Shown piece by piece: positions 20,744-21,422 of a DNA stretch of 64,000 bases. Each line of letters opens with the position of its first letter. The stretch's first letter is position 1. The notes beneath the pieces are model-generated. The model made no database searches, had not been told where the DNA came from, and was given only the letters and a program-made list of their open reading frames with translations. This DNA is from an uncultured Clostridia bacterium. Lineage in GTDB: Bacteria > Bacillota > Clostridia > TANB77 > CAG-508. The stretch spans positions 20,107 through 84,106 of the forward strand of contig CAKOWY010000007.1 of NCBI GenBank assembly GCA_934129895.1, given 5' to 3'. Both the position numbers and the translations under genes were made by a program.

Positions 20744-20772
20744 TTGACAGTACAGTTATAAAGTGATATAAT
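20744..20772 (+). promoter_or_regulatory. consensus sigma-A type promoter for the GC-rich two-gene module
   Basis: TTGACA (20744-20749), a 17-nt spacer, then TATAAT (20767-20772). Confidence 0.5.
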
Positions 20773-20828
20773 ATTAAAGTTCATTTACACACAACTCATA
20801 AAAGGTGAATACCTCAGGAGGAATACTT

Positions 20829-21032
20829 ATGAGTATTTTCATTCGTAAGAACACCAATTCTAGCAATGCTACCACAAAAAAAGCAGAACCTACTACTTCG
20901 TGTACTGATCCTGCTGCAGCTGCATGCTTGCGTGTTGCAAGCATTACCGACAATTTTGACAAAATGACTGAGGCAGATATTGTAAAAGCCTGCCAAGAAG
21001 CCATCACAACTTCGAAAAGCACCAACATCTGA
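20829..21032 (+). CDS. small orphan protein A (67 aa, Thr/Ala-rich, 3 Cys), GC-rich
   Basis: AGGAGG at 20816-21 sits 7 nt before the ATG. The open frame runs to TGA at 21030-32. Coding GC is much higher than the background. Confidence 0.5.
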   Translation: MSIFIRKNTNSSNATTKKAEPTTSCTDPAAAACLRVASITDNFDKMTEADIVKACQEAITTSKSTNI

Positions 21033-21050
21033 AAAACACAGGAGGAAAAT

Positions 21051-21368
21051 ATGGAAAAAGACTTCGAAGTTTCTTGCTCTTATGCTTTTTTAGAGCGTGA
21101 ACCGAAAATCACAAAGGAGTCCAACCCGCATCTCGCTGCCAAGTTTTACAAGGATTTGGCAAACGATCTTTGCTATTCTCTCTACACTCAGAAGAACTAC
21201 TCGCAGATGTGCCAACTGCTCAGCTTTGTTGCACTGTGCAACGGTAGAGTAAAACTCTGTGAAAAGAGTGGTTGTATCATCAGCATGGTCTTTTCCTTTA
21301 CGGACCAAGGGAACTCTCAGGAGTTTTTGGAATACGTAAAACAGCTCAATGTGAGCATTGTTAATTAA
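21051..21368 (+). CDS. small orphan protein B (105 aa, 8 Cys), GC-rich
   Basis: AGGAGG 6 nt before the ATG, and the ORF is followed directly by a hairpin terminator. Confidence 0.55.
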   Translation: MEKDFEVSCSYAFLEREPKITKESNPHLAAKFYKDLANDLCYSLYTQKNYSQMCQLLSFVALCNGRVKLCEKSGCIISMVFSFTDQGNSQEFLEYVKQLNVSIVN

Positions 21369-21378
21369 AAATTGGCAA

Positions 21379-21416
21379 AGAGAAGGCCCTTTCCTAACGG
21401 AGAGGGTCTTCTCTTA
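21379..21416. terminator. rho-independent terminator (probably bidirectional) between the orphan module and the nrdD 3-prime end
   Basis: AGAGAAGGCCC ... GGGTCTTCTCT stem, then TTATTTA. Confidence 0.6.
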
Positions 21417-21422
21417 TTTATT

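Follow-up and report, generated by a model that had tools for sequence, protein, structure and literature searches.

A conserved pair of small orphan genes next to nrdD in a clade of uncultured gut Clostridia

Introduction

Several described systems come close to the gene pair analysed here, each in a different respect. By predicted fold, the closest are small proteins of the ACT-like or ferredoxin type (ACT domains of TyrA, SerB, IlvA and aspartokinase, TM1266, ribosomal protein S6). The SinI/SinR-type pairs of Firmicutes, which we take to be two adjacent same-strand genes for about 60 and about 105 amino acids (aa), presumably with a sigma-A promoter each, are similar in layout. NrdG (TIGR02491) is encoded at the equivalent place, past the 3' end of nrdD, and the lineage-specific ORFan small proteins of gut metagenomes are likewise short, belong to no family, occur in one uncultured clade and are partly missed by gene callers. 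The pair itself lies at positions 20744-21422 of a 64,000-nucleotide stretch (called the window in this paper) of contig CAKOWY010000007.1 from an uncultured Clostridia bacterium (assembly GCA_934129895.1), and consists of two open reading frames (ORFs), ORF1 and ORF2, next to the nrdD gene. We are highly confident that this unit consists of two conserved protein-coding genes, restricted to one lineage and unrelated to nrdG. Its best overall explanation, which we regard as probable, is that it encodes two genuine small soluble proteins of two undescribed, clade-restricted families and constitutes an inherited chromosomal feature.

Results

Both reading frames are genuine genes of undescribed families

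Relatives of the locus were collected by a scan for NrdD with one genome per species, which yielded 80 loci from uncultured gut Clostridia, and further loci were added from ENA, Logan and JGI. Among the family members outside the window, the ratio of nonsynonymous to synonymous substitution rates (dN/dS) was 0.06-0.16 for ORF1 and 0.12-0.37 for ORF2. Constraint at the protein level and the order kept in the relatives thus indicate that both ORFs are real genes, and both are under purifying selection. For ORF1, the ratio of nonsynonymous to synonymous differences per site (pN/pS) was 0.13-0.17 in the sense frame versus a neutral-looking 0.73-0.89 in the antisense frame. The ORF1 family avoids the codons TCA, TTA and CTA altogether and, therefore, its codon-aligned antisense frame is free of stops in all ten sequences inspected (window and nine relatives). 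An overlapping antisense gene, which this open frame might suggest, was rejected on the basis of the antisense pN/pS.

GC-rich islands in AT-rich genomes are often structured RNA, and the ORFs might be incidental to a GC-rich transcript that acts mainly as a structured or dual-function RNA. The island is GC-rich, spans about 640 nt between a strong promoter and a terminator of its own, and gene callers pass over ORF2 on all long contigs of the window species. However, Rfam gave no match, neither at E<=1 locally nor at gathering scores over the whole window, and the z-score of the minimum free energy against shuffled sequences was only -1.5. Moreover, both frames are open and under purifying selection in relatives whose DNA is barely alignable, ORF2 yields a confident AlphaFold2 (AF2) model and the two genes form separate transcripts in the relatives. 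An RNA reading is, in our judgement, highly improbable.

When ORF1, ORF2 and their family members were searched against Pfam, NCBIfam, PHROGs, PADLOC, PDB sequences (profile search) and Rfam, no match was obtained, in keeping with the first-pass annotation of this DNA, which had recognised neither protein. An exhaustive HMMER search with the 179-aa concatenate against 1.84 billion representatives returned five proteins, all of the ORF1/ORF2 kind, and profile searches of a 5.8-billion protein set yielded 24 ORF2-type and 22 ORF1-type clusters, none of which carries a Pfam domain or a name. ORF1 and ORF2 are two previously undescribed protein families and both are confined to a single clade of uncultured gut Clostridia whose genomes are very AT-rich. 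The possibility that they would turn out to be widespread, ordinary members of a known family did not materialise: the families are small, lineage-restricted and free of family matches.

Organisation of the unit and its derivation from two transcription units

On the plus strand we found the TTGACA-17-TATAAT promoter, the two ORFs (67 and 105 aa), each with an AGGAGG in front, and the strong terminator that had been described for the unit (Table 1), which indeed is self-contained and strongly signalled, with promoter, Shine-Dalgarno (SD) sequences and terminator of its own. ORF1 and ORF2 share one frame and are separated by a TGA and six codons. The terminator is located 8 nt from the stop codon of nrdD and probably works in both directions, stopping transcripts of nrdD from the opposite strand as well. 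The placement beyond the 3' end of nrdD was correctly recognised before, but the unit does not follow this gene co-directionally; nrdD is on the minus strand and the two are convergent.

Table 1. Coordinates of the unit, its neighbours and the compared loci (window positions unless a locus is named)
Feature	Position	Strand	Remarks
Divergent promoter-like site TTGAAA-17-TACAAT	20692-20720	-	For upstream ykuD operon; common intergenic region with unit
Promoter TTGACA-17-TATAAT	20744-20772	+	Sigma-A-type consensus, TG-extended -10; 12/12 match
AT-rich 5' leader	20779-20828	+	Start inferred from -10 position; weak hairpin 20803-20814; SD1 AGGAGG 20816-20821
ORF1	20829-21032	+	67 aa; ATG 20829, 7 nt past AGGAGG; stop TGA
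Spacer	21033-21050	+	18 nt; SD2 AGGAGG 21040-21045
ORF2	21051-21368	+	105 aa; ATG 21051, 5 nt past AGGAGG; stop TAA
Intrinsic terminator	21378-21425	+	17-bp stem 21378-21415, -29.5 kcal/mol, then T-tract
nrdD (class III ribonucleotide reductase)	21423-23549	-	Convergent neighbour; Pfam NRDD 643 bits, Gly_radical, ATP-cone
Gene-caller gap over ORF2	21033-21422		Positions 10205-10594 of L002-L011
Window species			Upstream HTH345 replaced by ykuD
L094, L099, L101			Downstream nrdD replaced by glmM
L093			rumA upstream; ORF1 missing; unrelated 82-aa orphan after ORF2
HTH345-ORF1-ORF2 blocks compared	L012 8683-10093; L097 3417-5315; L094 4425-6318

The promoter core (TGATATAAT..AAGTTC) is kept in the relatives, which also have a hairpin, of other sequence, at the equivalent leader position. 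In the 64-kb window, the exact motif TTGACA-N16-18-TATAAT occurs four times versus 0.27 expected occurrences, a number reached by none of 100 shuffled sequences. The exact consensus promoter of the unit is not unique in the window, and others precede two further ORFs. One is located about 110 nt 5' of an 867-aa ORF, which is read as mutS by its size and the gene order in relatives only, and another one 5' of an ORF read, also by size and gene order only, as the glycyl-tRNA synthetase gene.

The two genes of the relatives are each equipped with a separate near-consensus promoter (TGnTATAAT, then ..AAGTTCG), leader hairpin and terminator, and the roughly 180 nt between ORF1 and ORF2 hold a terminator and the second promoter. 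In the window species, a mere 18 nt that include a new SD stand in place of this spacer of about 180 bp, and both genes depend on a single promoter and a single terminator. From the loss of the spacer and the new SD it follows that the compact module is a derived state, in which two transcription units have been fused.

Synteny and local divergence in the clade

The closest relative, L012 (NrdD 95% identical at the aa level), carries homologues of 60 and 104 aa at the same site and in the same convergent orientation, which share 38% identity with ORF1 and 50% with ORF2. The dominant gene order is MutS <- MiaB <- HTH345(-), ORF1(+), ORF2(+), nrdD(-), where HTH345 stands for a 345-aa protein with three tandem helix-turn-helix (HTH)-like repeats that is absent from the window. 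The arrangement HTH345(-)/ORF1(+)/ORF2(+), followed by nrdD(-) or glmM(-), was present in at least 17 loci and, wherever both genes were seen, ORF1 preceded ORF2. The neighbours are housekeeping genes and there are no mobile-element surroundings. Searches of phage and plasmid collections (blastn, tblastn), of IMG/VR and of JGI metagenomes outside the lineage gave no relatives of the pair. The pair is syntenic, and apparently inherited vertically, across several related lineages.

The two genes do not always travel together, a point on which tblastn comparisons had been suggested, since L093 has ORF2 without ORF1. The ORF2-type gene of this locus (L093 1640-2540) takes the place that ORF1 has in the window, immediately after the promoter and leader. 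The divergent element at window position 20692-20720 is kept 5' of it as well, there facing rumA, and this bidirectional promoter region is thus common to L093 and the window despite the different upstream gene (rumA versus ykuD). The 82-aa orphan between the ORF2-type gene and nrdD of L093 has strong signals and a GC content at third codon positions (GC3) of 0.47. In L110 (4303-5049), ORF2 and nrdD are about 750 nt apart versus about 60 nt elsewhere, which suggests another insertion at the same junction.

L012, L097 and L094 are near-identical by MiaB (pS 0.09-0.11, pN 0.005-0.007). For the HTH345-ORF1-ORF2 block of these genomes, we obtained pS values of 0.37-0.61 and pN values of 0.07-0.21, with an ORF2 pS of 0.21 in the closest pair L012-L097. 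This is 4-5-fold more synonymous and roughly 10- to 30-fold more non-synonymous divergence than in MiaB. The block is far more diverged than MiaB in near-identical genomes and is, therefore, a local divergence hot spot. One reading is that it represents a hitherto unrecognised cassette of three genes in this clade that diversifies rapidly and serves in regulation or recognition, which we consider improbable. If it were true, the persistent deviation of ORF1 and ORF2 from the codon preference of the host would be held by selection on mRNA or translation rate rather than being a transfer relic, and the window species would be an extreme, rewired variant with a fused operon, an unlinked HTH gene and a GC3 of 0.53.

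Two small, adjacent, fast-evolving orphan genes in such a hot spot might also form a toxin-antitoxin, defence or anti-defence pair, and a toxin with its partner had been among the earlier suggestions. However, the genes have separate promoters and terminators in the relatives, L093 makes do without ORF1 and no PADLOC, PHROG or Pfam model, defence and toxin-antitoxin models included, was matched. Stable chromosomal synteny, free of mobile-element context and of viral or plasmid kin, speaks in the same direction and leaves this reading very improbable.

The pair is unrelated to nrdG

The first-pass annotation had noted that nrdG is missing and suggested that the unit displaced it or occupies its slot. 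By tblastn, nrdG is indeed absent from the whole 64-kb window, while about 50 of the 80 relatives have it after nrdD and on the strand of that gene. As a control, the ORF directly after nrdD in L021 was identified as NrdG (TIGR02491, 203.4 bits versus a cutoff of 126.1). In tblastn searches, nrdG was found next to nrdD neither in the closest clade (L012-L020, L091) nor in any locus of the window species. Various other genes follow nrdD in this clade, and most of its nrdG-less loci also lack the pair. Since nrdG is lost with or without the pair, and since the pair adjoins glmM in three loci (L094, L099, L101), nrdG was not displaced by it; moreover, the pair is on the other strand. ORF1 and ORF2 matched none of the NCBIfam families and neither contains a CxxxCxxC motif. 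The pair did not displace nrdG, cannot replace it and is unrelated to it.

A 264-aa radical-SAM gene elsewhere in the window (15334-16128) was considered as a displaced nrdG. Its product does contain CxxxCxxC, but it matched, and weakly, other radical-SAM families only, so this candidate was rejected.

A cysteine-based redox or metal-binding pair, perhaps substituting for the NrdG activase, had been another suggestion. In the window species there are nine Cys in the 172 residues of the pair; eight had been reported for ORF2, but we counted six there and three in ORF1. The unit also adjoins nrdD where nrdG is missing. However, in the alignment of 19-21 ORF2 members no Cys is conserved, the homologues having 0-3 (that of L012 zero), and the ORF1 family has a single invariant Cys (C33). 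No radical-SAM or NrdG model was matched, whereas the positive control scored 203 bits. Together with the distribution of nrdG and the location of the pair at glmM described above, these findings leave this reading next to no probability.

GC-rich composition and codon usage

As described before, the coding block is GC-rich amid AT-rich DNA: its GC content was 0.41-0.44 in 200-nt windows versus about 0.26 nearby, with an AT-rich leader. GC3 amounts to 0.53 for ORF2 and 0.37 for ORF1 versus 0.11-0.13 for the long ORFs of the window (standard deviation 0.04-0.08, according to the length cutoff chosen for the ORFs). The elevation of GC extends to all codon positions and is accompanied by a shifted amino-acid composition. 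The pair uses no ATA, GGA, TCA or CCA and little TTA (8%), but CTC, which is close to zero in the host, accounts for 42% of its Leu codons. In DnaK of close relatives (GC3 0.10), the preferred codons are TTA (0.88), CCA (0.95), ACA (0.93), AGA (0.93) and CAA (1.00). Translational selection as the cause of the high GC3 was rejected, as the pair avoids exactly these A-ending codons. Raised GC3 is seen throughout the families (0.31-0.43 for ORF1, 0.18-0.39 for ORF2, in hosts at 0.10-0.18), with the ORF2 of the window as the extreme of its family. The high GC reflects family-wide, non-host, non-optimal codon usage.

The block might alternatively have arisen by xenologous replacement, in which the native ORF1-ORF2 alleles were overwritten from a mid-GC donor and the AT-rich native promoter region was kept. 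The GC3 of 0.53/0.37 versus 0.11, the use of codons almost unused by the host (CTC 0.00), and the shifts at all codon positions and in amino acids would fit such an event. So would the pS of the window copy against all relatives (0.77-1.05, above random expectation and beyond saturation) and the synonymous single-nucleotide polymorphisms (SNPs) within the species, four of five of which are G/C versus A/T and the fifth T versus A, compatible with decay towards AT. Other GC3-rich genes of these genomes are orphans as well. On the other hand, no donor was found, as nothing exceeded 55% identity among 5.8 billion or 1.84 billion proteins, and no kin outside the lineage turned up in phages, plasmids, IMG/VR or JGI metagenomes. 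Raised GC3 is present in both families and all lineages, and gene order, the site by nrdD and the promoter core are conserved. Finally, the extra divergence is about what the fast rate of the family predicts (dN 0.08 at an nrdD dN of 0.006; 0.49-0.54 at 0.022). We regard xenologous replacement as unlikely, if worth bearing in mind, and a recently inserted compositional island, as the unit had appeared to be, does not agree with the synteny across related lineages and the missing donor.

Two further GC-rich regions of the window are recorded here. A third unit of the same design is present at 56700-57182 on the minus strand, with an exact TTGACA-16-TATAAT promoter with TG (57155-57182), AGGAGG and a long GC-rich terminator. 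Its 110-aa orphan ORF (56746-57078, GC3 0.47) gave no Pfam, PHROG or PADLOC match and clusters only with variants of this species. A second GC-rich patch (38842-39657, minus strand; GC 0.38-0.42, GC3 0.31), also with an AT-rich promoter region and a terminator of its own, encodes a membrane-anchored SleB-type cell-wall hydrolase of 266-271 aa (TIGR02869 97 bits, below cutoff).

Protein features and predicted fold

Neither protein has a hydrophobic segment (maximum KD19 <1), the isoelectric points are 5.1-7.7, and both are predicted to be soluble. Members of the ORF2 family comprise 100-110 aa. The AF2 model, built with 19 homologues, has a mean predicted local distance difference test score (pLDDT) of 90.3 and a predicted template modelling score of 0.81, with strands at residues 5-12, 65-73, 76-83 and 102-104 and helices at 26-37, 44-62 and 86-99. 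This predicted model has the beta-alpha-beta-beta-alpha-beta order of the ACT fold, and ORF2 models confidently as a generic ferredoxin/ACT-like alpha+beta domain. Foldseek of the model against PDB and BFVD gave no significant match (best E-value 0.048), and the Pfam models of the ACT family matched none of 19 ORF2 members at E<=1. Seventeen positions of the family are invariant and 13 more nearly so. The kept residues include F13, E15, R16, P18, N25-P26, A30-K-F-Y-K-D-L-A37, G65, F81, F83, G87-N88 and E91-F92, and the ORF2 of the window retains all invariant ones.

The ORF1 family (about 60 aa) is modelled at a pLDDT of 58 with a Lys-rich disordered N-terminus and two helices. ORF1 was also considered as a truncated paralogue of ORF2, since MAFFT placed ORF1 homologues on ORF2, but the hhalign probability was 0.2% and this candidate was rejected. 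By profile-profile comparison, the two families are unrelated to each other.

The length of ORF1 and its two-helix hairpin might point to small sporulation or stationary-phase regulators, with ORF1 resembling the helical hairpins of Spo0E or Sda, or both products being spore proteins. The genome carries SleB-like and STAS (SpoIIAA-like) genes, and the MSQAEI motif of the ORF1 family bears what we take to be a faint likeness to the SQELD of Spo0E phosphatases. However, the ORF1 of the window has MTEADI instead of this motif, and no Spo0E-like or SASP Pfam match was seen in 14 ORF1 members at E<=5, nor in ORF2 members. The promoters, furthermore, match sigma-A and apparently no forespore or mother-cell sigma consensus. 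We judge this reading to be quite improbable, which applies equally to the spore-associated pair of the earlier suggestion.

Assembly support, gene calling and variation within the species

An assembly chimera, raised earlier as a possible artefact, is contradicted by hundreds of independent assemblies that contain the same block with its flanks at 98-99% identity. For the exact ORF1 sequence there are 321 indexed blocks, with contigs of up to 475 kb, and loci L001-L011 and L102 share 98-99% identity. In the annotation of the species' long contigs, that of the NCBI metagenome-assembled genome GCA_964313975.1 among them, ORF1 is called and ORF2 never. A collection of 15 billion proteins has no separate entry for the exact ORF2 of the window, which occurs there only inside one 179-aa fusion call under code 4 (P0015). 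Because the ORFs share one frame with only a TGA and six codons between them, some pipelines call this 179-aa 'fusion' under genetic code 4, and on short contigs both are often merged in this way, with TGA read as Trp (for example MGYP004504250673).

Within the species, ORF2 has three synonymous and three conservative non-synonymous SNPs. The SNP density per site is 0.010-0.019 for the pair and 0.010 for nrdD. The top value of the region (0.047 per site) was found in the gene for a YkuD-like L,D-transpeptidase (19704-20660, minus strand). A strain-variable segment is present at about 14700-16900 of the window (3836-6137 in L002 and L007), which holds a peptide deformylase and a radical-SAM gene in most strains. 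Both genes are missing from L002, which has a 189-aa ORF there with a weak Pyr4-TMTC-like match, and from L007, where the gap contains no called gene. At 16497-16808 of the window there is a 103-aa remnant-like ORF with a raised GC3 of 0.25.

Discussion

What the two proteins do can be proposed tentatively by analogy. ORF2 would be a soluble protein of small size with a ferredoxin/ACT-like fold that acts in binding or regulation, perhaps as an abundant stand-alone domain for a ligand or another protein, as ACT-like modules do. ORF1 would be its dispensable accessory, a non-obligatory helical partner. Both would be transcribed from strong sigma-A promoters, and the adjoining multi-HTH protein HTH345 may be functionally linked. 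This functional proposal is rather unlikely to be right.

Several observations weigh against it and against the explanation of the unit as an inherited pair of small-protein genes. High expression is inferred from the signals only, and the codon usage is opposite to the host-optimal set, which speaks against very efficient translation. The window copy diverges more (50%/38% aa identity, ORF2 pS 0.84-1.05) than its neighbours (Crp 80% identical, pS about 0.5), which leaves some probability to replacement by a foreign allele from an unsampled source. The fold matches of ORF2 are generic, with identities of <=14%, a Foldseek E-value that does not fall below 0.048 and no ACT Pfam match. A 'pair' function is not obligatory, as ORF2 occurs alone in L093. 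The explanation by two genuine, clade-restricted small-protein families nevertheless remains the one that we favour.

Taken together, the more exciting readings are unsupported, and the pair represents orphan families not described before, with a widespread type of fold and an odd codon usage. It adds two small-protein families, one of them with a confident predicted fold, that are specific to an abundant lineage of uncultured human and animal gut Clostridia. The locus also illustrates that standard gene calling systematically loses ORF2 in this species or fuses both genes under genetic code 4. The pair, for which no donor is detectable, is a small and clean case for asking why some native genes resist compositional amelioration. 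A tempting but wrong tie to anaerobic ribonucleotide reduction is removed, and no long-standing open question is immediately affected.

Compared with the known systems, the likeness to NrdG is limited to genomic position; the pair is on the opposite strand, differs in size, has no CxxxCxxC and matches no NrdG model. From the ACT-like proteins, ORF2 differs by its low sequence identity, the lack of an ACT Pfam match and a helix 1 that is split in two. The likeness to the SinI/SinR-type pairs is one of layout only, since ORF2 has no HTH but an alpha+beta sandwich in its AF2 model, and no HTH_3 or SinI Pfam match. The pair has most of the outward features of the ORFan small proteins of gut metagenomes. 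Unlike typical ORFans, however, it combines purifying selection, a kept pair and gene order, a confident fold and conserved strong signals, which are positive evidence of function.

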